Below, in pieces: positions 4,684 to 51,595 of a stretch of DNA of 64,000 nucleotides (position 1 is the first letter of the stretch; each line of letters opens with the position of its first letter). The position numbers and the translations under genes are program-made. The stretch is taken from positions 107,322,001-107,386,000 of the forward strand of contig CM097886.1 of the NCBI GenBank assembly GCA_044892525.1, in the 5' to 3' direction. The notes beneath the pieces are model-generated. The model was not told where the DNA came from, ran no database searches, and was given only the letters and a program-made list of their open reading frames with translations. Source of the DNA: Schmidtea polychroa (Eukaryota).

Positions 4684-4858
4684 TTCTACAATATTTACAA
4701 TTAATAGTGCGCTACAGTGCGGCTTATACTTATACATTTATAGGTAATTTTATATAATCAGGGTTACAGTCCCGTAAATATTTTTATCGTACTAATAATT
4801 TTTTTTTGTTGGGATACAGGTCCCGCTTTTTATATTTTTTTATCTTTTCTCCTTATCT

Positions 4859-6115: not shown

Positions 6116-7504
6116 CTACTCAGTCCTACTCTTCCCGTCTCGCCTCACCGCTATTTTTATGTATATAGTGTCGTTTCTCGTCATGTCTTCTACTTTCCGC
6201 TGTAGGATGAAATTCGGTGCTCCAGTTGCTGGTCCTTCTTCTTCCAAGGGCCTTTGGTAACATACGAGGTTTCCCGCTGTATGGAAACTCTGTTCATGTA
6301 TACTTTGATAGTTCATCATTGCGAGGTCTATTTTTGCTTTGAATGGCCATTCTATTAACTCGTCGTATAGCCCTTTGCACATCAAGAAGAATACTGAGAA
6401 ATGCGTTCCGTATGCACTTCCATCCCCATTGGGGTATGCTTTCATTTTCATTTTATACCCGTTTTTTCATGAGTAGAATGCTGGACTTAGTAATGTGGTA
6501 TCCTTTCCATTTCTCGCTCTCTGCATCTTCTCTTTTACTCCCGTTATTTTCCATATGTATGGAGCCGTTGGTATTAATTCGTTGAGGTTTAATTCGCTTA
6601 CTTTTTGACGTAGTTCTTTCACCATAATGTTGCTAGTTTCCACTAGATCTGTCTGTATCTTTGTACTTGTTCTCGCCTCTTCAAATGCTTCCTTTTCTTC
6701 CAATAACTCTTTTACCAACGCTTTTAGCGAGACCATTTCTTTCTCTAAGTTTTCGGTTTTCCTTTCGTTTTCTTGTAATACCGTTGACCATATTTCCGCG
6801 TGTGTTGATACGTTTTCTGCTAGATGTTGGGGTAATTCTCCTCGGTGTAATTGTTTCTGACATCCCCATTTTCCTAGCACACACGTTATCTTTTTCCTTT
6901 CACATTCTCTGAGATGTTGAGCGAGTCTTATTACTCCAGATTTATCGCATTTATTGGGACATTCTCCTCTGAACCCTGCTCACACTTTCTCCTCTTGTAT
7001 GTTGTGATGTTGACTGATTAGTTTTTTCCAGGTGTCGGTTTCTCCGCAATACTCACATTTCTCCAGTCTTTCTTCGCATCGACTTTGATGTTCTGCTTCT
7101 TCATTGACTTTAATCTCTTCTTGGCAACGTTTGCATTGACTGATTTTATACTCACATTGCTCCATATGTTGCCTCACTTCCCATATCCCTCCTCGCCAAT
7201 TGCATGGGGTGTTTTTACATCCTAAATTTGAATTTAACATATCTTTCACGGCTGCTTTATCTTCGTTTGTATCTCCCAAACTTGTTATCATGGTTTCTTT
7301 ACATACTGGGCACCATTGTGGTCCCTTCTTTATTATCTCCTCTACACATTCTCTGCACATTCTGCATCCACATCTGGTTTGGTGAGGTTCTCTTAATAAG
7401 CTCTTGCATATTCCACACGTTACATGGTTGTGTATTCGAATTGTGGTGGACTTTCTGACTTGTTCAACAATTTCTTTGAATTCTTCTCGTTGTCGCTTAT
7501 CCAT
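6116..7504 (-). pseudogene. TRAF: Full-length TRAF-family gene (RING, TRAF zinc fingers, coiled coil, MATH) with two in-frame TGA codons; pseudogene or read-through
   Basis: The three track ORFs (6980-7504, 6467-6880, 6116-6451) share one frame of 463 codons. RING CGICKSLLREPHQTRCGCRMCREC...CPVC; CPNKC zinc finger; MATH YIWKI...SPAFYS*KNGYKM..YPNGDG...THFSVFF...G.YDELIEWPF. Confidence 0.92.
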
Positions 7505-7593
7505 TTCTATAATTATATATATACATATATTCGTTACTGGTACAGTTTCGTATTTTTATTTACAGTTATTTACATTGCTATTTTAGGTTATAT

Positions 7594-8121: not shown

Positions 8122-9125
8122 CTATATACGTGAGCTTGGAGGGCGCTGAGCATTCCAGGCCTCCACCCACTGTTCCTGCTTGATATTACTTGGTCGTTTT
8201 ACACGATGTTGAAAATTTCTTATTCTGGCCATTTCTAGTTCTCCGCGATGCCGTCTATCTTTGATTATTTTTATTGTCCCCCCCGTTATGATTAAAAAGG
8301 CCCCTGTTATTATTATGCCGCTGATCCACATCATCTGTTTTACGCTTATAATTTCCGCTTTTTCCTTGTTCATTATTGTTGATATTGCCTCTGTGCTTTT
8401 TAGATTACCGTCTTTGCCATTTCCTTTTATCATTCCTCGTATTCTTGCTATTTCCTCGTTCATACCTTCCTTTGCCATTCTTTGTATTTTCTCCATCTCT
8501 TCCTCTGATACATAATTGTCCTGATATTTCTCACCGGTTTTCTTGCGTTTTCCTTGCTCATCTTTTTCGTCATTGATTTTTCTTTTCTTCCCTCTTTTCC
8601 CAGGGTATCGTCGACATTCTCTTTCTGGACCGTTTCTCAGGATACAGACCGTATATTCCTTTGGTGGTTGTTGTTGCGTTACATATTGCAGACAATTTTC
8701 TCCTGGGCCTAGCCTTGAAATACACACTTTGTGCTCTTTTCTTGGTTGAAGCTGTGTTATCACTATTTCACCTCCTTTACTCAGGTGTACCTCTTTCCAT
8801 TTGACTTTTGTTATCTTCTTCCCGTTTCGATGTTGGTACGCTTCTTGTATTCCCACTTCCGTTATTGGTTCTGCATCTTCATTTTTTAACACTAGTCTCT
8901 GATAAGCTCTAGACATACATCTTCCTAATATACACCTTTCTTTTAAATCCCATTCTTCTTTTAGATCCCATTGCTGCTCTTGTACTTGTTTTTTCTTTTC
9001 TTGTTTTAGTTCTTCCTCTTTGTTGTCCTTATTTTCCGTTTCTTTGGCTTCTTTTATCGTTCTCATTCCTCCCTGGGCTGTTATCATTTCCACCATTGTT
9101 AATACGAGTATCATTATCATCATAT
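8122..9125 (-). other. C-terminal type-I-membrane-protein-like module
   Basis: Signal-like MMIMILVLTMVEMITAQG (9071-9125), two Cys-loop repeats, and TM MMWISGIIITGAFLIITGGTIKII followed by basic KDRRHR. Confidence 0.6.
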
Positions 9126-12100
9126 TTGTCTCCACTTCTTTGTTGGTAAAAAGTAGGCATACCCTCTGTTTTCCACTATTCGTCTTTTCTTCTTGCTTCA
9201 TTCGGTTTCCCGGGTTATTTTCCTCTTTTTTCCTACTCGCGTCGTTATTTTCTTGATTATTCTCCTCTGATTTCTCTTTCTCTTTATTCCCGTTTCGACC
9301 TTTTTCATTATTATCGTCGTCTTTATCGTCTTTATCTCCCCCGCTATCGTTTAAAATGTCGTCCTCGACATTTATATCATTCAACAGTCTGCGGTATGCC
9401 GTTAGCACCCTGTTTCTTGCTAATTTTGCTTCGAATTCGAACTCTTTTCTGCCTGTTGCTGCATGTCTCTTTCTATTCCATTCTTTTACTAGTTCTCTCA
9501 ATTGTATACGGCGATGTTTTCCGATTCGTTTTTGTTCGTTTAGATTTTGCGTAAATTTGAGGTCTTCTCTGTTCAATACTATCGTTATGATTTTCGGAGT
9601 TCCTCCTTTTGTTAATGTATTTTTAACCATGGCATTTTCTCCGTTTTCATAGAACTCATTTATATTTATTGCATATTTATTACTTTGCGGTAATTTCCAT
9701 GTTAACAATAGCTTCATGGCTTCTAAGTTTTTCCGTATCGTGTTCCATTGGAACTGTGACGTATTTTTACAGATATTTTCTACCTCAGTTCTTGTAGCAT
9801 TTTTACAAATGAATCTAATCATTTCCAAGTTTGGTTGTATTGTTGCCCAATCCATGGTAGAATTTCCTTCGTTTGATATTTCGTCAAGACTCGAACCTGA
9901 TTGATGTAGTATATGTAAGGTTTTCGGGTGTATCTTTGTTATTGCTGCATACATCATTGCTGTTTCTCCTTGTTCATTTTTTGCATTAGATTCTTCTCCG
10001 AAGTCTCTAAGAATTCTTATGATGGTTATTGCTCTGTTTTCTTTTGCTGCTAAAATGGCTTGTTGTAATGGTGTTCTTGAATCTTTTGTTGGTAAGGTGA
10101 ATGCGAGTGGTATAAATGTTTTTATTTTTCCTATGTCTAGATTTGTGGTCTGGTCTCTTGCGTAGGTGTGTACTGTTTTTGTTATTTTTGCTAGTATCGC
10201 TTCATCGGATAGATCTTGCCTTTCCTCCACGAATACTTCTTTAGCCTTACGTACTACTATCTCTTGGTCGGAGTTTATTATCTTTGGTTTACTTGTTGTT
10301 GCTATATCGCTTATTATTTGATTGACTCGTTTCTCAGACTCCCTTGCTGTTATTTTCTTGGTTTTTATCCTTTTCTGGTTCGAACTGTTAATGCGTTCCT
10401 CTGCCGTTAGAACTTGAATAATACTTAGGTAGTTTTCTCGAATGTCATTCATAGTTTCCATCATATATAATACACTCACGGTTTCCCAAAATTTTTCTTG
10501 TACTTTATCGGTAAATTGAGATATAGCTTTTTCGAAGTTGGTAATTCGTTTTCTGATTAGTTGTTCGTCTTTGTGATTTGAGAACTTTATGCCACGTTGT
10601 AGTAGTTGATTTGGAATTTCGAATAGGTGATGTCCTCTCATCGCTTCTCTCATCAAGGTGTTTTCTCCTTTGGTAAATGTTTCGTTTATATCTACCATAT
10701 AATCGTTTTTGATCGGGTTCCTCCATGCAATTAGTAATCCAGCAATTGTTATTAATTTCTCTTTGATTGCAGTTAATAGCCCGTCATACATGTTTCCTAT
10801 CTCCCTATTATCCTCGTATGATAATAGATCTACTAAGATTATGAAGGCTTTCGTACTTTTCCCTTCGATTGCATGATGTAGTGCATTTTTCTGGTTGTGA
10901 TCTTGTGTGGTTATCTTTGACCCAGTTTCAAGTAATGCGATATTAATATCTTTAGCTTTATCCCGATTGGCTGCTATCATTAGTGGAGTGTAACCTTGGT
11001 TGTTTTCTTGATCCGTCGAAATGTTACAGTCGCGAAATGCTTCGATCGTTTCCAGTATTTGTTCATTATTCCCGACCTTTAAAAGTTTGTGCAGCGGTGT
11101 ATCTCCATAATGGTCTGTGATCGTAAATAATATAGGCCATTGACTTTTTACTACCCTGAGTAATGGGTGTGTTCTTTCTCGGTTTGCATAGTTTTCGATC
11201 ATGGTTAGCAGACCTCCCAATATCTCAAAATCTAATCTGTCTTTTGCCCATCCGGGCATTTTAGCTTTCACTTCCTTTATGATTTTCTCGGCTTCTGATG
11301 GTTGTAACCCCAATCGGTTACCTGTTGGTTCGTTTATCTGCTGTAACACATTTATTCTATACGTTTGTGATCTTGTTGTTAATGTTCGCCCTTCCGGCTG
11401 GCTGGTGGCTGTTTTCGGTATTGGCTTACATCGTGCCACGTTTACATATATTGGCCTCGTGAAGGGGTTGTTTACCAATCGTACTCGCACATTGGTTTCT
11501 CCGACGAATAGAATCTCATACGGACCTTTGCCGTTTCGTTGTAATTTTTTGGTGGTTCCTGGAATTAATTCTGGTGTTTCGATCATCACCCAATCACCGG
11601 TTTGAAATGTATGTTGTTTAACGTTTTTCTTTCTATCATGCAGATCTTTGTAACTTTCCTGATAAAACTTTATATTTAATCCCGCAGTTTCCCAGATTTC
11701 TTGCATTCTTTCCTTGAACTTGGTTACATAATCATCTATTTCCATATACTGTGATATTGGTGGCTGATATTCTAAATCCATTGGCATATTGCATTCTCTG
11801 CCGTACATCAACTTAAACGGACTCATCTTTGTGGACGCGTGAATCGACATTCTGTAAGCCATTAAACATAATTTTATATACTCGTCCCAGTCGCGTTGAT
11901 GACGATCGACATAATTTGATAACATTTGAATCAGTGTTCCATTGAATCTTTCTGTCATACCATTAGTTTGTGGATGGTACGGTGATGTTCTTAATTTTGC
12001 GATCTTGAAGTAGTTGGTGACTTCGCTCATTATTTCGCTCATGAAATTTGTCCCCTGATCGGTCAGTATCTGTTTTGGTGTTCCATATCGACAACATATC

Positions 12101-15100
12101 TCTTCCACTAATATTTTCGCGATTGTTTTTGCTTTCTGATCTGTCATGGCGAATGCTTCCGGGAATTTCGTCAAATAATCCGTAATCACCAATATATATA
12201 TATTCCCTCTATCTGATTCTGGTAATGGACCGACTACATCCATAGATATCATTGTCATTGGTTCTGCTGGTACTGGCATTGGCTTTAATGGTGCCTTCCA
12301 TTTTGTTCCCGTGTTTTTTCTGGTGGCGCAAGTTATGCAATTTTTCACCCATTCCGTTACATCCTCGGTCAAGGTAGGCCAAAAATACTTTTGTTTCATT
12401 CGGGCTAACGTCTTTTTAGATGACATATGTCCTCCGAGTCTACCGTCATGATATTGCGTTAGCAAATCTTTACGTCTATTCTCGGGAATGCACATCAGTC
12501 TTTTCTCGCCATCCATTATCAATAACCAGTCTTTCTCTATTATATATCGATGTCGATGTTTATCCATATGCTCTTTCAATTTTTGATCTTTCTCATATAC
12601 CTCTGCTTTCCCTGTTTTCACATATTCAATGATTTGCTTCAACTCTGTATCCTCTTGTTGGTCTTTCCGTAATTGGCAAAAATCTAAATCTTCTGCCACC
12701 ATCAGACATATTCGTTGCATTTCGTGATCTACTAAATCTGGAAAGATAAATCTTGACATACAATCTGCATTGGCATTCGCTCTTCCCGCTTTGAATTTTA
12801 TGAACGGTGAATATTCTTGTAACTGCATTGCCCATCGCATCAATCTGCTTGACGCCTCCTTATGCTGACCGAGCCATACTAATGGTTGGTGATCTGTGGT
12901 GATACATATTTCGTGTCCCCATAACAAATATCGAAAATGTTTAATCGCTTGTATAATTGCTAACGCTTCTCTCTCGGTTACGGAATAGTTTTTCTCATGC
13001 TTTTTAAACGTTCTGCTGTAGTATCCAATCACTCTTTCTTTTCCTTCTTCATCCAGTTGTCCTAATATTGCTCCGGCTGCATATCCACTTGCATCTGTTG
13101 CTAATAAGAACGGTTTCTTGAAATCAGGATGTACCAGTATTGGGGCTTCAATTAATTTATCTCGCAATGTCTCAAATGCTTTTTGTTGTTCTGCACCCCA
13201 AATAAATGAAATATCCTTTTTCACTAATTCCTGTATTGGTTTCGCAATACCTGCATAGTTTTTGATGAATTTTCGATAATATCCGCATAATCCGAGAAAT
13301 TCTTGGACTTGAGTGACGGTTTTCGGTGCTGGACAGGTTTTTATTTTCTCTATATTTCTGGGATCTGGTTCTTTGCCTTTTGCTGACACTATGTGTCCTA
13401 AAAACGTAACTTTCTCTTTTGCCCAATCACACTTTGATGGTTTGAGTTTCAATTTCCATTGTCGTAATCGAACGAACACGTTTCTGATATCCTCCAAATG
13501 TTGTTCGAATGTTGCTGAATATATTAATAAATCATCAATATATACCATGCACTGCTTGATCCCGTGCGTGACGAAATTCATACATCTCTGAAATGATGCT
13601 GGGGCATTGGTCAGTCCAAATGGCATTTTCCTGAATTGATACAGGTCTCGACCCAACGTGAAGGCCGTTTTCTCCTTGTCTTCCTCTTTAACTTTGATCT
13701 GCCAATATCCGCTTTTTAGATCTAAAGACGTAAAATATGCGGCCCCTTGCAGCATAAGTAACATCTCATTGATGTCTGGTAACGGGTATGTGTCTCTTTT
13801 TGTTACTGCGTTTAGTTTCCGATAATCGATACAGAATCTCTGAGTACCGTCTTTTTTCTTCACCATGACTACCGGAAATTGCCATGGCGAACAACTTGGT
13901 TCGATCACTTGTGCATCTAGCATTTTTTGTACTTCTGCTTCGGCTATCTCTTTTTGCTTCTCTGCTAGTTTGTATGGACGTAGTGCGATTGGAGTTTCGT
14001 CTATTAATGGTATTGCGTGTAATGTAACATCGCATGCTCCCAAATCTAAATCCGAAATAGCGAATATATCTTTATATTCTATCAATAATTGTTGAAGTCT
14101 TTCCTTTTCTTTTTCCGTTAGCAATGTGCTATCGATTGTCCATAATTCGTCAGCTTTCGTTGTTTCATTGGTGATTTTTGGTAATTCGATGTCTATCATG
14201 GGTGTCAATCTACCCAATCTTTCATTTTCATATATGATCTTGTCTTCTTCCTCGAAATTTGTGATGTTAATTGGTATTTCCCCTTCGTCATTTATTGTTA
14301 TTATTTCTCTTGCTAATGGTAATTCTCGTCGTTTTTCGAATGATTTGCTTGGCTCAAAAATGGCTTCTCCTTCCATTCCTGCATCCACTTTTATTTGACA
14401 TATCATCTGGGATTTTGCTGGTACAATTATTTTCTCCGGAAATCTGATTATTGCGTTCATTTTGCATATTCTACCCATTTTATCTTTTAGGCACATTGTT
14501 GTTAGATCTATTACTACTTCTTTGAACAATTCCGGCATTAAATCCGTTCCGATTATACATGGTTCACTCAGTTTGGGTATCACCGCTAGATACGTTTCAA
14601 TTTCATTATCTTGATATCGTAACGTAGTCCACCATCTTCCTACTACGTCTACGGTTTCTTTACTGCATGCAATAATATGGATAGTTGTTTGTTCGATGTC
14701 TTTCCAACATTTACTGGGTATTTGGTTTATTGCTATTGCTGATACATTTGCTCCGGTATCTATCATTGCGCTTGTCTCTTTCCCGTTGATTTGGATCATG
14801 ACTGTTACTGCCGCGCCTCCTGGTGAACTCATTACTGCTATTGTTCTGACGTCATCAGCTTGGTCTACGCTTTTCGTTCTTCGGGTTGGCATATAGTTCA
14901 TTCCTGGTTGACTTGGTAACTGTGGATACATATTTTGTGTCATGGTCAAAGCTGTTTGTTGTCCAACGATATCTGGTGGTATATAACTTCCGTTGGCTAT
15001 CCAGGTATTTGTTTTTTCTTTCTCCCAATATGGCGCTGTTTCTATTGGCTTTTCATTCGGGTTTCTGCTTGGATATGGGTATTTGTCATTCCCATTGTCG

Positions 15101-18100
15101 TCATCATCACTATCGCTGCTGTTTGATCGATTTCTAAATCTGTCTAAAAATTTTGGTTTGTTCTTTTTCAGTTGCGTCCTTGTTGCTTCATCATACATTG
15201 TTTTCCGAAATCGTCTACCGACTTCCTCGTCAGTCCCTTTTATTTTTGTCAGTATTTTGATTAACCGTTTTATTCTGTGTATATCTTTAGAATGACCGTG
15301 CAACACCATTGTTTTCGCCAAAAATGGTAGGAAGCCTACTATCAATTTCCAATTTACTTTCTTTTCTCTCTTATAGATATCAAAACACGCTAACATTTGA
15401 GTCAATATTACTCTGACAATCTGAATAATTAAGATGATTCCCAATATTCCTGCCATCATTTGACCGAACACTAGAAATCTTCCCCACATTGCTTTCATCA
15501 TGTTTGACGTGGCTTGTTGAAAATGATCGGGTGACAATAATAGTTCGTAATTGGGACCTGATTGGAAATTCGTTCCCCCAGTTATGGTAACCATATTTGA
15601 TAGAATGGATTCTCGTCTTGCTGGGAATAGTACGTTTAGTCGTGCTGTTTCTAAATCCTCTGCTGAGTACATACCTGCTTTTGACACATCAATTGGTTTG
15701 AAATCTTGCTCTGTTGCGAGTTCTATTAATCCAAACTTTTTAGGCTCTTGTACTTCGGTTTTTACCGGTAACATTATCCATTTCCCATCGGGTTTTTCAT
15801 ATAACGGTCCGTATGCATTTGAACAGTTAAAGGTGTTCGGATAAAATCCAATTGGGTTCATAATTCTAGTGACGGGTTGAACGAATCTGTTTTGCCCTTT
15901 GTAACTAATTTCCAACTCGTTTGCGCATTTCCCTGGTGGAATTGTGGGTTTTCTTGGCAGTCGCGCAAACGTCTTGGTACATGCATATGTATACATTACC
16001 TCTCCCACCATTCTACCAAAATGTCCATCCGGTAACGGGAGTGATGGCATTGTGTTATCTGGGTGTGTTATTGCGATGGCTAATTTTGTTTTTAGTATCT
16101 CTTTATTCAATGAACAGTCATTTTGTATAAGATCGTAGTATACTTTTTGCATTGTCGTTTGTCCTCGATGAAATAAGAAGTCCATTTTGTTATTGGCGTA
16201 CAAGTACAATTTTACGTCCTCTGTTGATACCTTTCCCACTGCTCGGTCTATTACTTGCCTTGACATGTAGATACCTGCGTAGTTCGTCCGATATACTATG
16301 CTGTCACATTTGGTGGTCTCTTTTTCTCTGATGAATCTCATACCGATATCTGGATCATCTGTAATTAATGCCGTTGGTGTTTTTTGTGTTGTGAGTCTCT
16401 TTTCTTTGGGGGATGGTGGAACTGGTTTCCCATTTCGCATCCTTACGTTTCCATTCTCTTCATCGTCGTCTTCGTTTTCGTAAATTTCTCCTTTTACTTC
16501 ATTGAATAGGGCACTTTTTAACAATTGGAGTCGGCATTTTTGGGTGTTAGCTTCATAGATTATAGTCGAAATTCCCGTTCTGCACACGTTTTCCGTAGCT
16601 CTGCATGCTGGGTTGGTTTTCATTTGATAGTTGTTTGCGTCGAATTGTGCTTCGTATTCCTTCAACTCCACTGTGTAGGACTCAATTACTACTACTCCCG
16701 ATATCACCTCTCCTCTGATCGTATATGTGCCTCCGTTACATGATCCATCAGTTGATTTTACTCGTCCGGCTACATAGATACTTTCCGTCTTGATCATTCC
16801 GCTTTGTCCGTGTATTGTTACTCCATCCCTGATTCTCATCGCTCCGGTTCTAAAAAGCTCTTTACAGTCTTCCCGTTGTATAGGTACTATTTCTTTATCT
16901 AATCCAGGTAATATGAGGGTTGAATATGAGTATTGTCCACAGTAGTATGCCAACACTTTCTTCGATACTACGCATTCTCTAGCTTGCGTTCTAATGAAAT
17001 CTGATTCTTGGTATACGTGATAGGAGACTTTCTTTTTTACTATATCTAATTTATTCGGAGATGCCTGTCTACATTCCTCTATATCTCTCAGGGAGTATCT
17101 TTCTCCTATTATCGAATTGTCACAGTCGTAAATTGTAAATCCCGCGGCTCCACTGGTGCAGAGCATCCATATCATCATGGTCATCATTAGTGAATTAATC
17201 GACGCTTTTCTGCTGGCTGGGTCTTTCAATGGCAATTCCCATTCCAGCTCGTTTAGCAATTTCTTCAACCGAATTTGCATTGATCTCTCTTGGTCGTTTT
17301 TTCGTGGCGCTTGTATGAGTCTTTTCCACCCACCGGCACGGATAATATGTGGTTCGATTGTATTTTCAATGATTGTAACGGTCATTTCTACATGATTTGC
17401 GAATTGTTTGTTAGGTATTTTCCTTGCTGCTAATCCCATCAAATTGTACATTAGATACGTTAATACTACTAAATGATGTTCGTCGTCGTTTGCGTTTAAA
17501 GTTAATTGTTCAATTACTCTTCTTGTCTCTTCCCAATCGGTTTTAGTGGTTTTTGTCTTCTCTTTGATTAATTTCGGAATTATTCCGGATATTGTATTCC
17601 ATAGCTGTCTGGCATCTACGCTTGCTACTTTTCGTTGCCATAACCGTCGCAATTGTGGGTTCGTTATTATTAGCATATCTTTTACTAGCTCTCGTATCCA
17701 TTTTTCGCCTCTTTCGATTGTTGGCTGGGCCTCTTTTAGATCCCACACTATTTTATCCAGTTTCTCCAATCTGACTTGTCCTTGTTCTTGTTTCAGTTGT
17801 TCTCTGGTTTTGAATTCTGGTTTTTCTCCTTGCTTCCTAGGTCTTCCTTTTGCCCGTTTCTCCATCATTGTTCCAGTCTCTCTGGTTGTTTCGTAACTCG
17901 GGTTTCTCTCATTATCTGTTCTTGGCAATGAGCTATCGTTGTTTCTCAACCACTCATTCCATTCGTCTATTATTTTGTCCGTTTGACCTTCTGGTGTTGC
18001 TTTCGTTGGTCCTTTCTGTCGTTGGAATTGTTCGTCGGTTTCGGTTTCTGTTGTATTATCGATAATCTCCTCGATACTTAGCTTATTTGGCTGCTGATAG

Positions 18101-21100
18101 CTAGTTGACGGTTGGCTTGTTGTCCATATTTCGGCTCCTGTCGGCCATCTTACCAGAATTTGTGATCTTTCCCCAGCTCCTTCATCGCTGTCTTCCAATA
18201 TGATCTCCTCGATCTCCTCGGTTTCGTTTGATTTACTCGCCACTTTGTTAGGGCTTGGTGTACTCAAGCTACCTTTCGTAGGTTTACTGGATTTGCTCTT
18301 CCTTTTAATCGGTTTTCCCAATGTTTCTGCCATTGTCAATACATTGATCTCCCCCAATCTCATGGGTGTTATTCCGACATCTGCATTATCATCCAACGAT
18401 TTTCCGAATAGTTGTAGGTGAAATGGAGTTTCGTATGCTAATTTCTTTTTTAACTCTCTGATCTTTGTTGTTGGATGTACTTCTGTATCCTCAATGCTTT
18501 GGTCGGGATACTTGACTCGGATACGATACCTTTCCTGGGTATCTTGTGCCCATTCTTGGTTTCTCCATTTCCTAATAATTTGTTCTAGCTGCTCTGGGTA
18601 CCATTCGTTATATTGTCGGTATTCCTCAATCGCTTTCGCCATTTCTCTTAGATTGTGGATATTCTCTGATGTCTTTAGGATGATGTTAGCCAATGCTATT
18701 ACTTGTCGTTTTTGATTTTTTGCTCCCGTTGCTAAGATATCACCTAATTGTTTATATCTTTCCTTCTCTTCTCGTTCTCGAGCTTCCATCGCTTCTTCGC
18801 TGTCCATATCGGCATATTCGCGTTCTTTCTTTCTCATCGCATGAATATGTCTGGTTTCCGTTTCACTTTCTGACGTAACATCCGTTTCGCTTTCGTCGTC
18901 CGATATCGATTCTATTTCGTCCTCTTCGTATTTTGGAGGTTCATCTTCCTCTTCTTCTGATTCACTTTCTGTCTCACCAATGTCTGTTTCTACGAAAATC
19001 CCTTTCCTGATTTCCCATTCTTTGTTTTCCGCATTCCACATCCTTTCCCATGGGGTTCGTCTGCAGGATCTAGTACTCAGTTTCTTTATTTTTCCTTGAA
19101 GCTCTTTTTCTTTTAGCCACTGTTGATGAATTTCAATTATCTCTACTGATTTTTGGTATAGCGTTTTCATCCTGTCTCGTATTTCTTTCTGGTATGTTAC
19201 ATCTCTTGTTCGGAATTCGTCCATGGGCAATATTTTGATGATTTGATGATTATCCCACATTCCCATTTCACTTAACGAGGTATCGTCTTCAGCCCGTAAT
19301 ATTATTTTATCGTACATCATGACTACGTCATCTATCATACCATCACTACTCTCGCTTCGTACCTTTTCCGTTATCTCTTGGTTTATCTTGGTTACTAAGT
19401 CATCCACCGTACTCTGATTACTCATCTTTATTCGTCGTTTCTCCTCGTTTGGTAACCATATGGTTATTTCTAATTTCTGCGGTTGCGTTTCTTTTAATCT
19501 TCCGTATTTGTGGATCAAATTTATGGTTCTCCAATCGCTCATCCTGAGCAATTCTGTATCTCGTAATCGGCTCATTAGTTCATGCATAGTTGGGGTTCGT
19601 TTTGCTATGAGCAAATCCCAGTTGTCTTCAACTTGTTCTTGGATTTGTTTGATTAGTTTATCTAGATTCCGCCTTAAAGTGCATTGTTTTATTTGTTCCA
19701 ATTTCAGCTTGATATTGAAATCGTATTCAGCCTTGGCGTCTTTAGCCCATTCATGAACATTAGCTGGTTGCTTCTCTTTATGCAACTTCAATATTTGAGT
19801 TTCTCCTGGCCAGATCAATGCATCTATTAGGTGCATGTCTGGTTTGATTTGTTCTCCTTGATATTGATACAGATATTCTTTCTTTCTTGAATTACCCAAA
19901 TGTTCTCTTATCCAATCGAAAAGATCGTCTGTAACTGTATTTTTTATCCATATTCTCTCGAGTCCTTTACTCGTTCCGATTTTTATTACGTAGCGTGTTG
20001 TCTCCGCTTGTTTCATTTTTTCCATATACTTCTTTATTATCGCTTTCTCCTCGCTTGGTATTAAATCTTTTTCGTTTCTTTCCAGTTTCATTATCTTTTG
20101 TATGAAGCGTCTGTATGGTATGATGTCAATGAAATCCTGGTTTCTTACCACCACTGGAAGTATTTCTTTTACTTGTTTTATCGCCTCTTCTTTTTCCTTT
20201 CTCAGTTTCATCTCGATATTCTCATCTTCACTTTCGCTTGCCACATCGCTTTCACTTTTCTCCTCATCTTCTCCGATCTTTTTCTTTAGTTGTTCGATAT
20301 TTTCATTTAACTGTAATATTTCTCCACCAAGGCTACTCACATAATCCTCCTCGTCATCTGTTGACAATACCTTCTTTGTCGTCCTCATCATGTTAATTCG
20401 TAAGTTTCTCATTCTTGATACTTTCTTGAGCTTTTTATTCTCAAATATCGTTAATTCTTCCGATTCTAATTCTTGTACCATTTCATGGGTTAAATGACTA
20501 GTTTGTTTCTCGTTTCCGTCATTTATCGCTTCTGCTTCTGTTTTTGTTTTCTCATGTTCTCTTTCGATCTTATCTTTTATCTTTTTCCAAAATATTTTCT
20601 GGATTCTCTGATTTCCCTTTAGTGGTGTTGTTGGATTTTCCTTTTTATCTTCCGTAACCGTTTCTTTCGGCTTCTCTGGTTCGATCATAGGTACAACTCT
20701 TGGATTTTTACCATAATTGTAACAATATTGCTCCTTTATCTCTTTTACCATTCTCATCATATTTATTCGTAATGGTTGTTCTTGTCGCTGCTGAATTCGC
20801 TCTCTTTTTATTCTCTCTTCCTCAGCTTGTAGTCTCTGCCATTCTTGTGCATGTTGTTGCACTTCATAATTGTTAAGATTTTCGGTGCTCCTCATCATAC
20901 GTATATTCTGAGTTTGTTGTGCTACTGGTTCTTGTCTCGGTCTCATCATTTGTTGCATCATCTGTTTCATTTGTGAAATTTCTTGCATCACGTTCATTTG
21001 CTTTCCTTCACTGGGGTTACTTTGTCGTTGCGGATTAGGTGCATAATTATTGTTTCGTTGTGGTGGTTGTTGTTGTTGGCTCCTTTCTCGGCAATCTCTT

Positions 21101-21996
21101 GAGATGTGACCTGGCTGACCGCAGTTAAAGCATCCTCTCAACTGGCATATATTTTCCGTGTGTCCTCGTCGTCCGCATCTATTACAATTTGCGTTTCGGT
21201 AACAATTTCTATCCCAATGTCCTGGTTTACCGCATGTTCGGCATTGTTTGTTATCGTTCGTATTTCGTCGATTATTAAAATTATTTCCATTGTTCGAGTT
21301 GTTGCGTTCACTGTTATTCCCGTTTGATCGTCCTTGCGGTGGTTTGAAAATTTGATGCGCACCTGGTATAAACTGATTCATCTTCGGTTCATGATTGTTG
21401 TTATCTCCATTTTCCGTTTTCACCGTTGCTGATGCGATTCTTCCCTCCTCCTGCATGACATTCATTTGTGCCGGGAGGTGTAGTTCGCATCTTGTGGCCC
21501 AATCTATGGCCTCTTCTAGTGTTTTACACATCTGACATCCCACCGAGGCTCTTACCTCTTCCCGGCGTAGTCCTTCTATGAAGTAACCAATTAGATTTTC
21601 CTCCGGCAAGTTTCCGTTCATGGCCTTCTTTGCCAATCTTCGCAATTCGCTCGCGTATAACGTTATTGATTCATTGGCTCTTTGTTTTCTACTCGCTAAT
21701 TCTCCTAGGGCTTGATTTATTGGTTTGCTGGCCCCGAATGTTTTCCTCAAAAATGTTTTGATGCTTTCCCAATTGTCTAATTTCGTATTCCTCTCTTTTG
21801 CTTCTAGGTATACTTCGAGTGCGCTATCGCACAAAAACAGAGGCATTCGTTTACTAATTGCTTCCGCTGTCCATCCGCACACATCGATATAGACTTCAAA
21901 ATTTGTTATGAACGTTGCCAACTTGTTCGCATTCCCGTTAAACGGTTCGCCTCTAAATTTTTCTTTATACTCGTCGGTTTTTACCACATTCATCAT
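8122..21996 (-). CDS. 4,624-aa Gag-UBL-Bcl2-Env-PR-RT-RH-IN-ANK-TM polyprotein, copy 1
   Basis: Single uninterrupted ORF ending in TAG. Motifs: CCHC x3, DTG, YIDD, TDAS, HHCC/DDE integrase, ankyrin TPLH-type repeats. Confidence 0.97.
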   Translation of the reverse strand: MMNVVKTDEYKEKFRGEPFNGNANKLATFITNFEVYIDVCGWTAEAISKRMPLFLCDSALEVYLEAKERNTKLDNWESIKTFLRKTFGASKPINQALGELASRKQRANESITLYASELRRLAKKAMNGNLPEENLIGYFIEGLRREEVRASVGCQMCKTLEEAIDWATRCELHLPAQMNVMQEEGRIASATVKTENGDNNNHEPKMNQFIPGAHQIFKPPQGRSNGNNSERNNSNNGNNFNNRRNTNDNKQCRTCGKPGHWDRNCYRNANCNRCGRRGHTENICQLRGCFNCGQPGHISRDCRERSQQQQPPQRNNNYAPNPQRQSNPSEGKQMNVMQEISQMKQMMQQMMRPRQEPVAQQTQNIRMMRSTENLNNYEVQQHAQEWQRLQAEEERIKRERIQQRQEQPLRINMMRMVKEIKEQYCYNYGKNPRVVPMIEPEKPKETVTEDKKENPTTPLKGNQRIQKIFWKKIKDKIEREHEKTKTEAEAINDGNEKQTSHLTHEMVQELESEELTIFENKKLKKVSRMRNLRINMMRTTKKVLSTDDEEDYVSSLGGEILQLNENIEQLKKKIGEDEEKSESDVASESEDENIEMKLRKEKEEAIKQVKEILPVVVRNQDFIDIIPYRRFIQKIMKLERNEKDLIPSEEKAIIKKYMEKMKQAETTRYVIKIGTSKGLERIWIKNTVTDDLFDWIREHLGNSRKKEYLYQYQGEQIKPDMHLIDALIWPGETQILKLHKEKQPANVHEWAKDAKAEYDFNIKLKLEQIKQCTLRRNLDKLIKQIQEQVEDNWDLLIAKRTPTMHELMSRLRDTELLRMSDWRTINLIHKYGRLKETQPQKLEITIWLPNEEKRRIKMSNQSTVDDLVTKINQEITEKVRSESSDGMIDDVVMMYDKIILRAEDDTSLSEMGMWDNHQIIKILPMDEFRTRDVTYQKEIRDRMKTLYQKSVEIIEIHQQWLKEKELQGKIKKLSTRSCRRTPWERMWNAENKEWEIRKGIFVETDIGETESESEEEEDEPPKYEEDEIESISDDESETDVTSESETETRHIHAMRKKEREYADMDSEEAMEAREREEKERYKQLGDILATGAKNQKRQVIALANIILKTSENIHNLREMAKAIEEYRQYNEWYPEQLEQIIRKWRNQEWAQDTQERYRIRVKYPDQSIEDTEVHPTTKIRELKKKLAYETPFHLQLFGKSLDDNADVGITPMRLGEINVLTMAETLGKPIKRKSKSSKPTKGSLSTPSPNKVASKSNETEEIEEIILEDSDEGAGERSQILVRWPTGAEIWTTSQPSTSYQQPNKLSIEEIIDNTTETETDEQFQRQKGPTKATPEGQTDKIIDEWNEWLRNNDSSLPRTDNERNPSYETTRETGTMMEKRAKGRPRKQGEKPEFKTREQLKQEQGQVRLEKLDKIVWDLKEAQPTIERGEKWIRELVKDMLIITNPQLRRLWQRKVASVDARQLWNTISGIIPKLIKEKTKTTKTDWEETRRVIEQLTLNANDDEHHLVVLTYLMYNLMGLAARKIPNKQFANHVEMTVTIIENTIEPHIIRAGGWKRLIQAPRKNDQERSMQIRLKKLLNELEWELPLKDPASRKASINSLMMTMMIWMLCTSGAAGFTIYDCDNSIIGERYSLRDIEECRQASPNKLDIVKKKVSYHVYQESDFIRTQARECVVSKKVLAYYCGQYSYSTLILPGLDKEIVPIQREDCKELFRTGAMRIRDGVTIHGQSGMIKTESIYVAGRVKSTDGSCNGGTYTIRGEVISGVVVIESYTVELKEYEAQFDANNYQMKTNPACRATENVCRTGISTIIYEANTQKCRLQLLKSALFNEVKGEIYENEDDDEENGNVRMRNGKPVPPSPKEKRLTTQKTPTALITDDPDIGMRFIREKETTKCDSIVYRTNYAGIYMSRQVIDRAVGKVSTEDVKLYLYANNKMDFLFHRGQTTMQKVYYDLIQNDCSLNKEILKTKLAIAITHPDNTMPSLPLPDGHFGRMVGEVMYTYACTKTFARLPRKPTIPPGKCANELEISYKGQNRFVQPVTRIMNPIGFYPNTFNCSNAYGPLYEKPDGKWIMLPVKTEVQEPKKFGLIELATEQDFKPIDVSKAGMYSAEDLETARLNVLFPARRESILSNMVTITGGTNFQSGPNYELLLSPDHFQQATSNMMKAMWGRFLVFGQMMAGILGIILIIQIVRVILTQMLACFDIYKREKKVNWKLIVGFLPFLAKTMVLHGHSKDIHRIKRLIKILTKIKGTDEEVGRRFRKTMYDEATRTQLKKNKPKFLDRFRNRSNSSDSDDDDNGNDKYPYPSRNPNEKPIETAPYWEKEKTNTWIANGSYIPPDIVGQQTALTMTQNMYPQLPSQPGMNYMPTRRTKSVDQADDVRTIAVMSSPGGAAVTVMIQINGKETSAMIDTGANVSAIAINQIPSKCWKDIEQTTIHIIACSKETVDVVGRWWTTLRYQDNEIETYLAVIPKLSEPCIIGTDLMPELFKEVVIDLTTMCLKDKMGRICKMNAIIRFPEKIIVPAKSQMICQIKVDAGMEGEAIFEPSKSFEKRRELPLAREIITINDEGEIPINITNFEEEDKIIYENERLGRLTPMIDIELPKITNETTKADELWTIDSTLLTEKEKERLQQLLIEYKDIFAISDLDLGACDVTLHAIPLIDETPIALRPYKLAEKQKEIAEAEVQKMLDAQVIEPSCSPWQFPVVMVKKKDGTQRFCIDYRKLNAVTKRDTYPLPDINEMLLMLQGAAYFTSLDLKSGYWQIKVKEEDKEKTAFTLGRDLYQFRKMPFGLTNAPASFQRCMNFVTHGIKQCMVYIDDLLIYSATFEQHLEDIRNVFVRLRQWKLKLKPSKCDWAKEKVTFLGHIVSAKGKEPDPRNIEKIKTCPAPKTVTQVQEFLGLCGYYRKFIKNYAGIAKPIQELVKKDISFIWGAEQQKAFETLRDKLIEAPILVHPDFKKPFLLATDASGYAAGAILGQLDEEGKERVIGYYSRTFKKHEKNYSVTEREALAIIQAIKHFRYLLWGHEICITTDHQPLVWLGQHKEASSRLMRWAMQLQEYSPFIKFKAGRANANADCMSRFIFPDLVDHEMQRICLMVAEDLDFCQLRKDQQEDTELKQIIEYVKTGKAEVYEKDQKLKEHMDKHRHRYIIEKDWLLIMDGEKRLMCIPENRRKDLLTQYHDGRLGGHMSSKKTLARMKQKYFWPTLTEDVTEWVKNCITCATRKNTGTKWKAPLKPMPVPAEPMTMISMDVVGPLPESDRGNIYILVITDYLTKFPEAFAMTDQKAKTIAKILVEEICCRYGTPKQILTDQGTNFMSEIMSEVTNYFKIAKLRTSPYHPQTNGMTERFNGTLIQMLSNYVDRHQRDWDEYIKLCLMAYRMSIHASTKMSPFKLMYGRECNMPMDLEYQPPISQYMEIDDYVTKFKERMQEIWETAGLNIKFYQESYKDLHDRKKNVKQHTFQTGDWVMIETPELIPGTTKKLQRNGKGPYEILFVGETNVRVRLVNNPFTRPIYVNVARCKPIPKTATSQPEGRTLTTRSQTYRINVLQQINEPTGNRLGLQPSEAEKIIKEVKAKMPGWAKDRLDFEILGGLLTMIENYANRERTHPLLRVVKSQWPILFTITDHYGDTPLHKLLKVGNNEQILETIEAFRDCNISTDQENNQGYTPLMIAANRDKAKDINIALLETGSKITTQDHNQKNALHHAIEGKSTKAFIILVDLLSYEDNREIGNMYDGLLTAIKEKLITIAGLLIAWRNPIKNDYMVDINETFTKGENTLMREAMRGHHLFEIPNQLLQRGIKFSNHKDEQLIRKRITNFEKAISQFTDKVQEKFWETVSVLYMMETMNDIRENYLSIIQVLTAEERINSSNQKRIKTKKITARESEKRVNQIISDIATTSKPKIINSDQEIVVRKAKEVFVEERQDLSDEAILAKITKTVHTYARDQTTNLDIGKIKTFIPLAFTLPTKDSRTPLQQAILAAKENRAITIIRILRDFGEESNAKNEQGETAMMYAAITKIHPKTLHILHQSGSSLDEISNEGNSTMDWATIQPNLEMIRFICKNATRTEVENICKNTSQFQWNTIRKNLEAMKLLLTWKLPQSNKYAININEFYENGENAMVKNTLTKGGTPKIITIVLNREDLKFTQNLNEQKRIGKHRRIQLRELVKEWNRKRHAATGRKEFEFEAKLARNRVLTAYRRLLNDINVEDDILNDSGGDKDDKDDDNNEKGRNGNKEKEKSEENNQENNDASRKKEENNPGNRMKQEEKTNSGKQRVCLLFTNKEVETNMMIMILVLTMVEMITAQGGMRTIKEAKETENKDNKEEELKQEKKKQVQEQQWDLKEEWDLKERCILGRCMSRAYQRLVLKNEDAEPITEVGIQEAYQHRNGKKITKVKWKEVHLSKGGEIVITQLQPRKEHKVCISRLGPGENCLQYVTQQQPPKEYTVCILRNGPERECRRYPGKRGKKRKINDEKDEQGKRKKTGEKYQDNYVSEEEMEKIQRMAKEGMNEEIARIRGMIKGNGKDGNLKSTEAISTIMNKEKAEIISVKQMMWISGIIITGAFLIITGGTIKIIKDRRHRGELEMARIRNFQHRVKRPSNIKQEQWVEAWNAQRPPSSRI
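9560..11170 (-). other. Two ankyrin-repeat modules after integrase (~10590-11170 and ~9560-10090)
   Basis: GDTPLHKLL, GYTPLMIAA, KNALHHAI, SRTPLQQAI, GETAMMYAA, GNSTMDWA. Confidence 0.85.
11415..12460 (-). other. DDE integrase with HHCC zinc domain and GPY/F motif; no chromodomain seen
   Basis: H...GH...CITC; DVVGPLP; TDQGTNF; PYHPQTNGMTERFN; GKGPYEI. Confidence 0.96.
12750..14030 (-). other. pol: Reverse transcriptase and RNase H
   Basis: YIDD at 13531-13542; LDLKSGYWQI; FLGH; RNase H LATDASG, EREALAI, TDHQPL, NANADCMSR. Confidence 0.97.
14480..14810 (-). other. Aspartic protease
   Basis: VMIQING...AMIDTGANVS (DTG at 14752-14760) and CIIGTDLM. Confidence 0.93.
15300..17200 (-). other. env: Envelope glycoprotein, chuvirus-glycoprotein-like (class III-type), with internal signal peptide and C-terminal TM anchor
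   Basis: Signal SLMMTMMIWMLCTSGAAG then FTIYDC...YSLRDIEEC; YYCG; AGRV..DGSC.GG; YANNKMDFL; GEVMYTYAC; CANELEI...F.QP.TR; GMYS.EDL...VLFP; TM FLVFGQMMAGILGIILIIQIV. This Cys/motif order is what I recognise from chuvirus-like glycoproteins. Confidence 0.8.
17311..17775 (-). other. Bcl-2-like domain within the polyprotein
   Basis: ENTIEPHIIRAGGWKRLI matches BH2 (Bcl-xL NDHLEPWIQENGGWDTFV). Helix spacing upstream fits alpha4-alpha6. The BH1 NWGR motif is degenerate. Confidence 0.7.
18334..19998 (-). other. Three ubiquitin/SUMO-like beta-grasp domains (~19785-19998, ~19228-19476, ~18334-18531)
   Basis: YQYQGEQIKPDMHLIDALIWPGETQI (SUMO-like); LEITIWLPNEEKRRIKMSNQSTVDDLVTKI...DDTSLSEMGM; YRIRVKYPDQSIEDTEVHPTTKIRELKKKL...LQLFGKSLDD (ubiquitin-like). 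Matched by eye to ubiquitin/SUMO patterns. Confidence 0.6.
21091..21996 (-). other. gag: Gag capsid plus three CCHC zinc knuckles (copy 2 = +26412)
   Basis: Capsid-like FNG...FITNFE...W...L...A...W..IK..L...F; knuckles CRTCGKPGHWDRNC, CNRCGRRGHTENIC, CFNCGQPGHISRDC at 21091-21243. Confidence 0.93.
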
Positions 21997-23265
21997 GACT
22001 GGTTCTTGTAACTCTATTGTTTCTTTTAAATTTTCCAGCGGTGTCGCTAAATTATGGACGGATAATTCTTCGGTTGACCCGGTTAGGTTGTTTGTTATAT
22101 CGGATAGGCTTTCTCTGCTTCTAGATCGACTAGGGGTGTATCCGAGGTTTTCTTGGTCAAATGTTGGTACTTGATTTGTTCTTTTTGCTCCTTGTGATCT
22201 TCCTCTTTGCTGTTTTATGGATCGTCCTCTTCTGAGCTGTTCTAGTTCGTCTCCTGAAATTAATACGTCTCTTGACTTACTTGAGGATCTGAGATTTAGT
22301 TTCTCCGTGATTTCTTCTTACGCCTCTTTATCGTCTCTTATGGATTTCTCGGCAATTATCGGCTGCTGACTTGAGCGAATTCGGTTTTGTCGGTGTTCCG
22401 AGTCCTTGGCAATTGGTTGTTAGCGTTATGAGACGTCTTCCGTTCTTGGAATCTTCGGGTTGTGTTACTCCTACTGAGCGGGTTCTGGATTGGTTATTTC
22501 TAGTTGGTCGTTGATTTCTTCGAATTCCTTTGTGCAGGTTCTGGATTGGCTTGATTGACTGGATTGGTTTGGTATCTAAAATGAAAAAATGATCTCGTGT
22601 TGCATCTGCTCACACGACTTCATCATTCTTTCTTCAACATTCAAACACAGACACCGTTTAGGGCCTCTGTTATGCTTCTCTTTATTTCCCCATACAATTT
22701 CTCGTGGATTATAGTTACCCATCAACCCATAATTTTCGTCGATTTTAAATTATCTATTTAGGGTAGTAATAATTATCTATATGGTCGTATGAATTATCTA
22801 TAATTATCATTTATAATATCGATAGGTCGTTGTCAGTTACTGCTTATCACCCCCCATATTCTCTTAATCCTTTTACGCGGTTCCGCTATTTTACTTAGTC
22901 TTCCGTCTCTGTTCCCTTTTACTCGGTTCTACTCTGAACCAAAAAAAAAATCAGATTCGTTTATCCAGTTTAAACCAAAAATTCTGTAGACTTTTGTCTA
23001 CTTACTTGGGATCCCCTTTAATTAATTAATTATCTTCCTTTTTACTCGTCATTTATTCCCACTTATTCTCTACTTTTACTATCTCCTCAATTCATTTTCC
23101 TTTTCTGATTCTCCTTTTCTACTAAAAGGGTTTTACTTTCATCTTCTACGAGCTCGTTTAATCCTTTCTAAATTCGACTTCTCGTATCCCAATTCAATTC
23201 GTTTCTAGCTAGCTTAATATTCTATCTCATTATCAACTTAAATATTATCCAATCATTTTCTAGGC

Positions 23266-25176: not shown

Positions 25177-25183
25177 AAAATCA

Positions 25184-28100
25184 TGTTGGCATATGTGGGG
25201 AAAAAGAAATTTGTTGCACACATCATCATCTCACATCTCACATACCCTGCATCATTACTCCGCTCAGATACTCCCCATACATACACCAAATGATCATGTA
25301 CATATTCCCACGCATGAGCCCGTGGTGATGTTCCACGTTGGTGCTGCTCACACGGGTTGGAAAAGGTTAGCAGGTGAGCCTCTGCCTTAAGACTACTCCT
25401 AACCCTTTCTCGATACGGGTTCTACGGTGCCTTAGAAGGTCTTACCCCGTCCCACATACACAATTCGGTCCGACCCTGGTCCAAGGGGACGACCTTGTAT
25501 TATCACCTACATTCGACATCATCTTTCCACTCGTATCAACTTCGATATCTCACCTGTTAAAATCAATCATCAGAAACAATAAAAGATGTATTAACTTATA
25601 ACAAATCATTACACGCAGAATAATCAAGAACTGTTTTACATGTAAACATACAGCATTTATAAACACGCAAGTTCACTTCGGGACCATGCATAGAACAAGG
25701 CACCTTTGAATTGATCAATCGAAGGGTTCTCCATCCGCAAGCATTGCGTCGATATCGACCGGCAGTCGTGGGTTAGAAATGTACTTGATGCCTTCTGCCG
25801 GTATTACACGAAAGATTTCCTTTGATGGGATGGAATGGCTGGAGGATATTTCTCTTATGGTAGATTGAGCTACAGATAGTGACGCCTCGAGAGCAGCCAT
25901 CGCATCTCGGCGTTTCTGATTTTTCTCGGCTCAGGTCGGCCGTTTCCGTTTGCGAGACGACGGGGGATTGTCAGTGTGCGGGGTGACGACGGTTGCCCCC
26001 AAGATTGGAGCCAAGATGGGCTCGGTAGGTCTACCTACCAAGGGTTGAGAACCCGATAAGATTGGAGCTGGAATGGGCGGTAGGCACGATCCATGCCCTT
26101 GGCAGCTCGTAGCAGTCGGTTCGGATACTTGATGATGAAGAGGGAAAACGTTCATTTTCTCTATGACGGGAAATTCCCGTACCCGCTTGGCGAGTTCTGC
26201 CTCCGTATAAACCTTGTGGAGGGCTTCTGATTGGGCTTTGATTGTAAGCCGTTGGCATCGGCTTTCCTCCAGCAAGCTATCTCTACAATGTTCTAACCGG
26301 AGGATTTTCTTTCGTTCCTCCTTCATTTGTGGCGGGGAGAACCACGTGCCTTCGTAAAGGTCGATTCTTTTCTTTAAAGCCCCGATGTATAGATGGAGCT
26401 GCGCGATATCTGCATTTTTATCCGCGCAGGAGAAACATGGGCGAAGAGTTTTCTCAGCAGTTGTAAAAGTAGTCATCTAAAGAATGAGAAGTCCTTTATT
26501 TACATCATTAAAATCCTTTCTACTATTTATTTTCTTTTTATCGTGAGCTTTATCCTACCACATATGCATACAATCAGGATTGTCCCCCACATCCATACCT
26601 TTGACATCACTTAACTCATCCAAACCGTAAACCTTCAAATCAACCCATCACATCGTTCGTAATGAAGAGAAAATGAGAACCATCACACGTTATTTCTCTA
26701 CTCATATTGATATTGTACCTAGGTTCCTGGGTCGACAGTTATCATCTAATCGCAATAAGTTACTCCTTACCACGGATATATTTTTTCCACTTTTATTTAT
26801 TATGACCTATTAAGGGTGGGTCTACTCCCTGGTTTTTATGGCTTATTGCGTTATGCCTGCTTTAATTTAAAAGAAGTAGTTCCATACTGTTGATGCACTT
26901 GGCGCTGTATTAAGTTAAAACGAATTTGTTAAAAATTATTATTAGTATTAATTTCCCTCATAAATTATAATTTAATTATTTAAATTTTCGCATTTCATGT
27001 TGTCATAACGACGCGTATCGGTATGTAGTTGTGTACTGGTTTCAGACTCTACCTGATGTGCGCTAATGTGTATTATCTCGTTTTACTCAATTATCGCTGT
27101 CCTCTCTTAACAACTCTAGACATGGTGTCTGTTAGTGTACTTTGATCTCGTCGTTTATTTATGTATGCCTACTAACACATTCTACTATGACGCAATGATG
27201 ATGTCAACTCACACACGTCCCTTGTACTAGTGGATTTATCTGTGTGTGGGTTTGGGCCTACTTATCTCAGTTATAACATTATTAGCAGATGGGCTAGACG
27301 GATGGAAGATAATGATTCAGGCTTATAGAAGTAACGATTGTTATGATTTCAAGATTGCCCAAATCTGTTACCGGGTAAAAATGGATTTAACTCCTATCTC
27401 TCTCGTGAATGTTGACTATTCTCAAAAACCTAATCGTCTCATCGATTTGGCGCATGTCGTTCCACAATCGAACCGCTGGAATATTTTATCTACGCTACTT
27501 GCTTCTCTGCAATAGTCGTTTCTCGATCAGATGGAAAATTTATCGATAATTTGTTCGAAATGGTCGATGATAATTTCCTTTAGGACTGTAATAAGTACCT
27601 ATGATTAATTAGAACTTTGCTGTTTACTTTCCTGTCAGGACGAATCCTTATCGATGACAGTAGTTAATCGAAGGTTGATAACTAAGTCTCCTACTCGTCA
27701 AATGACATATCACCGCGATGGGTTTACTCGCTAACGTTCTCTTAATTTATCAATTCTTAGGAATATAGAATATTCTAGATTTTTATCATTCCTCAAGAAA
27801 CGAAAATGGACGTTAGAATTATCAGTGAAGTTCGAGAATTTCATTACCCTCAAGGATAGTCGATATTCACATTCTGACGAAAAGAAGTAACCTAGCTCTG
27901 AATTGAATATGGCCGAACTCAAACTCGGATTAAATATCGAAAAATGTCGTCGATCTCCTAGAATTTTCAGTCAGCACGTTGTCGGCATCGAAACCAGTAT
28001 CGTTCAGAAGTTTCCTCAATAGAAAACTTCCGACGGCTAATTTTATGGATATCACTCGATGAAAGGATCATTGACTCGATTCGTTTTCTCTCACAGGGTT

Positions 28101-33916: not shown

Positions 33917-34005
33917 TTCTATAATTATATATATACATATATTCGTTACTGGTACAGTTTCGTATTTTTATTTACAGTTATTTACATTGCTATTTTAGGT
34001 TATAT

Positions 34006-51588: not shown

Positions 51589-51595
51589 AAAATCA

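Follow-up and report, generated by a model that had tools for sequence, protein, structure and literature searches.

A tandem pair of giant LTR retroelements

The window, which is the whole stretch of 64,000 nucleotides from Schmidtea polychroa that was analysed, contains a head-to-tail pair of giant LTR retroelements that share one LTR and repeat with a period of 26,412 bp. The element has a unit length of 26,412 bp, LTRs of ~4.23 kb and a total length of ~30.6 kb, and its assignment to the Burro type rests on layout, as described for Burro (PMC6431247). The main features of the pair are as follows.

25183..29413, no strand assigned: shared middle LTR of the tandem pair, ~4.23 kb
51595..55825, no strand assigned: right-hand LTR of the tandem pair, from repeat comparison
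8122..22317, minus strand: polyprotein frame, a single open frame of 4731 codons in the order Gag-Env-Pol, one per tandem copy
15298..17139 (3′ end approximate), minus strand: Env, a Monjiviricetes/gB-type fusion glycoprotein (Pfam PF24664, E 1.3e-71)
17833..17859, minus strand: AT-hook-like basic motif KRAKGRPRK in the sequence just upstream of the Bcl-2 domain
6116..7555, minus strand: TRAF-like accessory gene downstream of the polyprotein, with a RING, TRAF zinc fingers, a coiled coil and a presumably MATH-like end

The LTR-internal-LTR-internal-LTR tandem spans window positions 1–55825, and comparison of the two copies revealed 2 mismatches in 29,413 bases (29.4 kb). This arrangement could be due to a recent tandem insertion, to recombination or to duplication in the assembly. 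Further close pairs spaced ~26.4 kb apart are found in the genome, for example loci L007 and L008. The region is present in at least 150 copies sharing 93–100% identity in the 781-Mb genome (150 of 935 candidates were scored), and many of the other copies carry 4732–4817 open codons.

A Pfam scan of the polyprotein found, in order, Gag with three CCHC knuckles, a weak Bcl-2 match, Env, PR-RT-RH-IN and ankyrins. Between the zinc knuckles and the Bcl-2 domain lie ~1100 aa made up of a variable linker and ubiquitin-like sequence, and the Env transmembrane segment lies at aa 2287–2305 (hydropathy, KD19 2.53). Weak ubiquitin/RA-like matches (E 0.01–0.12) upstream of the Bcl-2 domain, at 18300–20100 on the minus strand, correspond to the Ubi/SUMO-like motif noted for Burro (PMC6431247). 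A GRPR motif comparable to that in KRAKGRPRK is found in family B and in the outside relative P0008, with a similar one in P0004. Two more hydrophobic segments near the C-terminus of the polyprotein (window ~9150–8260, minus strand), one signal-like at aa 4400–4418 and one transmembrane-like at aa 4667–4685, suggest a second small membrane protein, and an array of ~74-bp tandem repeats is located between the LTR and gag at 23268–23705.

The TRAF-like gene has a tandem counterpart at 33967–32528 (minus strand). Here it is interrupted by two in-frame stops that are private to this tandem pair, and it is stop-free in 84 of the 92 genomic copies scored. No BIR match was found in the polyprotein or in the seven accessory ORFs of at least 150 aa that were scanned.

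A Bcl-2-like domain between Gag and Env

An earlier note on this DNA had proposed a viral-type Bcl-2 domain directly upstream of the Env signal peptide, in the segment at 17311–17775 on the minus strand, which corresponds to aa 1515–1669 of the polyprotein. The features of this region are listed below.

17305..17727, minus strand: predicted Bcl-2-fold domain core, aa ~1531–1671, from structural alignment and a profile match to Bcl-xL
17473..17487, minus strand: BH1-equivalent site DDEHH, in which NWGR is lost
17326..17358, minus strand: BH2-like motif IEPHIIRAGGW, in which His replaces the first Trp
43723..44187, minus strand: the same Bcl-2-fold region in the other element of the pair, at an offset of 26412

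Using the window sequence alone, the Pfam Bcl-2 model (PF00452) matched aa 1614–1664 with an E value of 0.018 and a score of 16 bits, against a cut-off of 31.4. A profile built from seven other Bcl-2 ORFs of the same genome scored the window domain at 13.0 bits, a score reached by none of 2000 shuffled sequences, while the reversed sequence scored −0.2 and the best domain across the whole polyprotein was at aa 1618–1667. A profile made from family B only was weaker (8.0 bits, reached by 7 of the 2000 shuffles), and alignment of the window's domain with hhalign to family B alone or to the host set alone gave 3.5% and 5.8%, respectively. The host set (A3) includes L043, which sits in a Maverick-like element. 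Two word-index homologue searches with the domain found no match, which is weak evidence.

Genome searches based on the Pfam Bcl-2 model, the env family and a GGW..YDC pattern found five more env-bearing families; the pattern, which gave 826 control matches against 409 real ones, served only to find further families and not as a statistic. The window's domain and these five sister families align with hhalign at 82% (E 1e-5), and the sister families align with the host-type Bcl-2 set at 95.8%. The alignment A1 is made up of 27 retroelement rows and no host rows, and outside the window's own family the rows are 13–22% identical to the window's domain. These are 27 of 32 rows, five near-duplicate family B rows having been omitted. 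Loci L068, L069, L071, L079, L083, L084, L088 and L089 are also absent from it because they have stops or frameshifts near the domain, have fewer than 100 open residues, were missed by a filter or gave no match. As A1 was partly chosen by the Bcl-2 search or the GGW pattern (family B and families E–G), motif conservation within it is inflated.

The Pfam Bcl-2 model matches all 27 rows of A1 at E≤0.1, the best at 4.6e-7, and when the A1 profile was compared to the sequences in the PDB, Bcl-xL ranked first (E 5.7e-5). A search of 1.84 billion proteins with the same profile gave 13 matches, namely five with the order Bcl-2, hydrophobic segment, env, three canonical Bcl-2s, four other retroelement-like proteins or fragments and one that is likely false. 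A Bcl-2-like domain before env is therefore confirmed as a real feature of the element.

Other Bcl-2 genes in the genome

Stand-alone, multicopy Bcl-2 ORFs were seen at L073–L077 and also at L036–L050, some apparently with a short intron. They adjoin genes for TBP, an rve integrase, an A32-type ATPase and a PolB-like protein, and are likely to be cargo of Maverick/Polinton-type elements, which would make these a second mobile source of Bcl-2 in this genome. Separately, seven near-identical host-type Bcl-2 exons (L021–L027) are clustered on one contig at ~89.9–90.8 Mb, with NWGR intact and a BH3-like motif present.

Predicted fold

An AlphaFold model made from the single sequence (pLDDT 52) was uninformative and was set aside, as its Foldseek matches were helical-repeat noise with no Bcl-2 among the matches listed. 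The model made with A1 (pLDDT 61, pTM 0.63) predicts a helical bundle around a central hydrophobic helix, a Bcl-2 fold, and residues 12–152 of 155 align to Bcl-2 structures. When this model was compared to known structures with Foldseek, the check that the earlier note had proposed, it matched the Bcl-2 bundle; all 34 of the matches listed belong to the Bcl-2 family (TM 0.51–0.65), although no hit reached an E value of 0.001. In a search of a viral library, those of the top 17 matches that carry a name were Bcl-2 homologues or apoptosis inhibitors. VIA comparison to 48,161 chains placed KSHV Bcl-2 first (Z 13.3, rmsd 2.6 Å over 128 residues), followed by A179L (13.2), BHRF1 (13.1) and the cellular Bfl-1 (12.7). 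Every one of the 28 rows at Z≥8 is a Bcl-2 fold, and unrelated structures first appear at a Z of 7.6, over 74 residues. The profile, Pfam, Foldseek and VIA results alike support a Bcl-2 fold immediately before the hydrophobic segment of env. They do not show it to be viral-type, as the best viral matches tie with Bfl-1 to within 1 Z.

The possibility that the GGW is merely a chance occurrence in a helical region was also considered. The single-sequence Pfam score is below the cut-off, and the score for ribosomal L17 is nearly as good; L17 was the sole match (E 0.4) in a phmmer search of the PDB with the single sequence and was rejected as a chance match. However, the shuffle test, the profile searches, the reciprocal matches and the structure all indicate Bcl-2, and we consider a chance origin to be refuted by the match of the A1 profile to Bcl-xL, the VIA result and the search of 1.84 billion proteins, leaving it with a negligible probability.

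Conservation in six families

The six families share a common order, with the Bcl-2-like domain followed by a spacer, basic residues, a hydrophobic segment and an env that starts near YDC, and in relatives outside this genome, too, Bcl-2 is followed by a spacer, the hydrophobic segment and env. A GGW or GEW motif was present upstream in all seven of the loci that were picked by their env match alone.

Within the window's family, the domain is 93–94% identical between the window's subfamily and a second subfamily (L062, L063). Synonymous sites between the two are at or near saturation (74 differences in 98 sites), and the dN for the domain is 0.04, giving a dN/dS of ~0.01; in the same comparison, dN is ~0.03 for the linker and 0.045 for env. 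The dN/dS for five pairs within sister families ranges from 0.11 to 0.37. Purifying selection on the domain is strong, and the degenerate motifs are therefore being maintained and are not decaying. It covers the whole region and is thus not specific to the Bcl-2 domain.

A role in assembly of the element would suit the findings that the domain sits directly ahead of env in all six families and in relatives from elsewhere, that it is under a constraint equal to or above that on env, and that Gag, Env and Pol follow one another in a single frame. The domain would then stay uncut from Gag and, together with a retained signal, hold the Gag precursor at the membrane beside Env in a matrix-like manner, comparable to the signal-anchored capsid of rubella. 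The long variable linker and ubiquitin-like sequence that parts the zinc knuckles from the domain argues against such a role, which we rate as improbable.

Loss of BH3-groove residues

The earlier note had described the BH2 motif, IEPHIIRAGGW, as clear, and the motif was located with GGW kept, though the first Trp is a His. This Trp is kept in 24 of the 27 A1 rows, including all 24 sister rows, and the three rows with His all belong to the window's family. The replacement of NWGR by DEHH held up only in part. The BH1 register is ambiguous by one residue, and the site reads DEHH when counted ungapped from GGW or DDEH when aligned to the sister families and Bcl-xL, but W, G and R are absent under either register. 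In the register of A1, the BH1 Gly column contains D or E in 26 of 27 rows and G in none. A BH3-like pattern (L-x3-G-D) was not found in the first 95 aa of any of the 27 rows, and hot-spot residues of the groove have been lost from every one of the six families. The further claim that this divergence of NWGR is typical of viral Bcl-2s does not hold generally, as TWGR is still present in canarypox CNP058 and NWGR in fowlpox FPV039, according to an excerpt of PMC5691656.

In human Bcl-2, the substitutions W144A, G145A/E, R146A and W188A each abolish Bax binding, as listed in Table 1 of PMC6825947. As the W, G and R of BH1 and the first Trp of BH2, the positions needed for Bax binding, have changed here, classical BH3 capture is doubtful, and on sequence grounds the case for an anti-apoptotic role via the classical groove is weakened. 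A classical pro-survival protein that sequesters BH3 motifs and has a mitochondrial tail anchor, as the earlier note implied, would be in keeping with a fold match that spans the whole bundle and with the existence of host Bcl-2 genes with intact NWGR, one of which (L021) has a BH3-like motif. Against it stand these four changed positions and a tail that is weak and is followed by luminal Env, and we regard it as very unlikely.

In poxviruses, M11L and F1 are pro-survival proteins whose sequences resemble Bcl-2 little or not at all, whereas the vaccinia Bcl-2 folds A52, B14, K7 and A49 bind no pro-death protein and inhibit NF-κB or IRF3 (PMC5691656, in excerpt). As survival proteins with few motifs and non-binders are both found among the Bcl-2 folds of poxviruses, the fold does not reveal the function. 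The domain could, like A52, B14, K7 and A49, be a Bcl-2 fold repurposed as a non-apoptotic scaffold that blocks innate or stress signalling, perhaps with the TRAF-like, ubiquitin-like and ankyrin cargo. The loss of the hot-spot residues in every family, the documented poxviral precedent for such inhibition without pro-death binding, and the TRAF-like gene in the same element, stop-free in most scored copies, are consistent with this. However, the BH2 GGW is kept, the model is nearer to the BH3-binding viral Bcl-2s (Z ~13) than to A52 (9.0), N1 (8.9) or A46 (7.8), which scored lower in the VIA comparison, and M11L and F1 show that survival function can persist with hardly any Bcl-2 sequence likeness. 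Overall, we consider a scaffold of this kind to be rather unlikely.

The hydrophobic segment

The Bcl-2 domain is connected to Env by the following two features.

17191..17325, minus strand: spacer of 45 aa from GGW to the hydrophobic core, from the sequence; dN 0.032 between subfamilies
17140..17190, minus strand: predicted internal env signal sequence and candidate anchor, with the h-region LMMTMMIWMLC (17190–17158) and a small-residue c-region, from hydropathy

Env begins near FTIYDC at 17139. In the window's family the 11-residue core of the hydrophobic segment is located 40–45 aa after GGW, and no other of the six families has a segment of such low hydrophobicity (KD19 1.40 vs 1.85–2.45 in the sisters, whose cores are up to 17 aa long). 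The spacer between GGW and the core ranges from 20 to 50 aa among the families, the segment in family B contains an Asp, and in sister family C a 17-residue core lies only 20 aa after GGW, so the segment may be a tail anchor that the captured gene brought with it.

No Met is present within the 12 aa before the hydrophobic core in five of nine representatives, which fits an internal signal sequence. Signal peptidase sites follow a (−3,−1) small-residue rule, on which the putative cleavage before FTIYDC is based, and in the families inspected a small residue precedes this cut, three residues before YDC. If Env is to reach the ER as part of this polyprotein, the hydrophobic segment would have to serve as its internal signal, which would leave the Bcl-2 domain in the cytosol. 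We consider it probable that the segment functions in this way, as an internal signal sequence whose N-terminal end faces the cytosol, and that the domain is tethered at least until the segment is cut or released. Env may also come from a spliced env mRNA; no splice joint for env was found among the matches listed in contigs of three presumed-RNA runs (four runs were examined).

A role for the segment as a membrane anchor is plausible, as it fits the topology and the gene order. A lasting tether that functions like the tail anchor of Bcl-2 proteins is possible but somewhat doubtful. Mitochondrial tail anchors have basic residues after the segment, and none would follow the putative cut here.

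A proposed role for the domain

The explanation that we favour, though with no more than even confidence, is that the domain between Gag and Env, which is diverged and predicted to have a Bcl-2 fold, is likely to be held by the Env signal at the ER membrane, on its cytosolic side, and is likely to sustain the host cell by means of a remodelled surface and not the BH3 groove. As part of the single frame of this giant LTR retroelement of Burro type, the domain would be made after Gag and before Env, the protease of the element would presumably cut it free of Gag, and the internal signal sequence of Env would hold it at the ER membrane, facing the cytosol. There it may help the host cell to survive through a surface other than the classical BH3 groove. 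Suppression of cell death, taken by itself, is a role to which we give slightly less than an even chance.

A broader proposal is that, in this env-bearing clade of retroelements, one hydrophobic segment doubles as the Env signal and the anchor of a captured Bcl-2, with a groove rebuilt in all families (BH1 Gly to Asp or Glu) such that it would act on host death or stress signalling in a non-classical way and in step with every Env molecule. We put this forward as a speculative and fairly unlikely generalization.

Comparison with known systems

Grohme 2018 and Jurka 2007 are reportedly the original descriptions behind the account of Burro/GYPSM1 elements given by Arkhipova & Yushenova 2019. In these giant Ty3/gypsy elements of planarians, env lies in frame after a BCL2-like motif (PMC6431247). 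That the domain exists, and where it lies, is therefore already known from published work on Burro elements (PMC6431247). The element in the window resembles Burro in exceeding 30 kb with LTRs, in having one huge ORF, of ~4.8k aa in Burro, that includes Gag with three CCHC knuckles and a BCL2-like motif, in having env in frame between BCL2 and PR, and in its ankyrins and its TRAF-like, presumably MATH/TRAF, cargo (PMC6431247). It differs in that no BIR match was found in the polyprotein and the seven accessory ORFs, and in that the TRAF-like gene is downstream of the polyprotein. The Burro section of PMC6431247 makes no mention of the fold, the groove residues or an anchor. New to this analysis are the structural support, the evidence that six families and relatives from elsewhere retain the domain, and the fact that the hot spot of the BH3 groove has been lost in common. 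None of the papers listed by a literature search puts forward a signal-peptide anchor for this domain; Grohme 2018 and Lee 2026 may treat the domain further.

The gene order and the type of Env are also those of the GAG-ENV-POL errantiviruses of Platyhelminthes, which carry an HSV/gB-type Env (PMC13524379, in excerpt). The term "bcl" is absent from the main text of that paper. Among Bcl-2 proteins, the domain resembles Bcl-xL, Bfl-1 and Bak and the herpesvirus, ASFV and poxvirus proteins KsBcl-2, BHRF1, A179L, CNP058 and M11L in its predicted bundle (Z 10–13.3, rmsd 2.4–4.0 Å) and in its BH2 GGW. Unlike the cellular and viral proteins, it lies within a polyprotein, has lost NWGR and the first BH2 Trp and has no BH3 motif, and its C-terminal hydrophobic segment leads into Env.

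The capsid of rubella virus, which we take not to be a Bcl-2 fold, is likewise a cytosolic protein upstream of a glycoprotein with a signal peptide as its anchor, an arrangement established for rubella and proposed here. The E2 signal peptide is retained as the membrane anchor of the capsid, which is anti-apoptotic, and the signal peptide is dispensable for this protection (PMC3040668, in excerpt).

Should the signal-sequence anchor prove true, the retroelement would couple a death-regulator fold to the production of its envelope. A further parallel is the B-IAP of Burro1, for which Lee et al. 2026 in Dev Cell is said to be the source study. It too is a cargo of the anti-death type in a Burro element, and it has been credited with protecting planarian stem cells (PMC13465017, second-hand and in excerpt). 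Unlike the domain described here, B-IAP is an IAP with RING and BIR that acts on caspases and is not a Bcl-2 fold (PMC13465017, in excerpt). With the anchor in place, the Bcl-2-like domain would be a second candidate, beside B-IAP, for effects of these elements on the survival of planarian stem cells.
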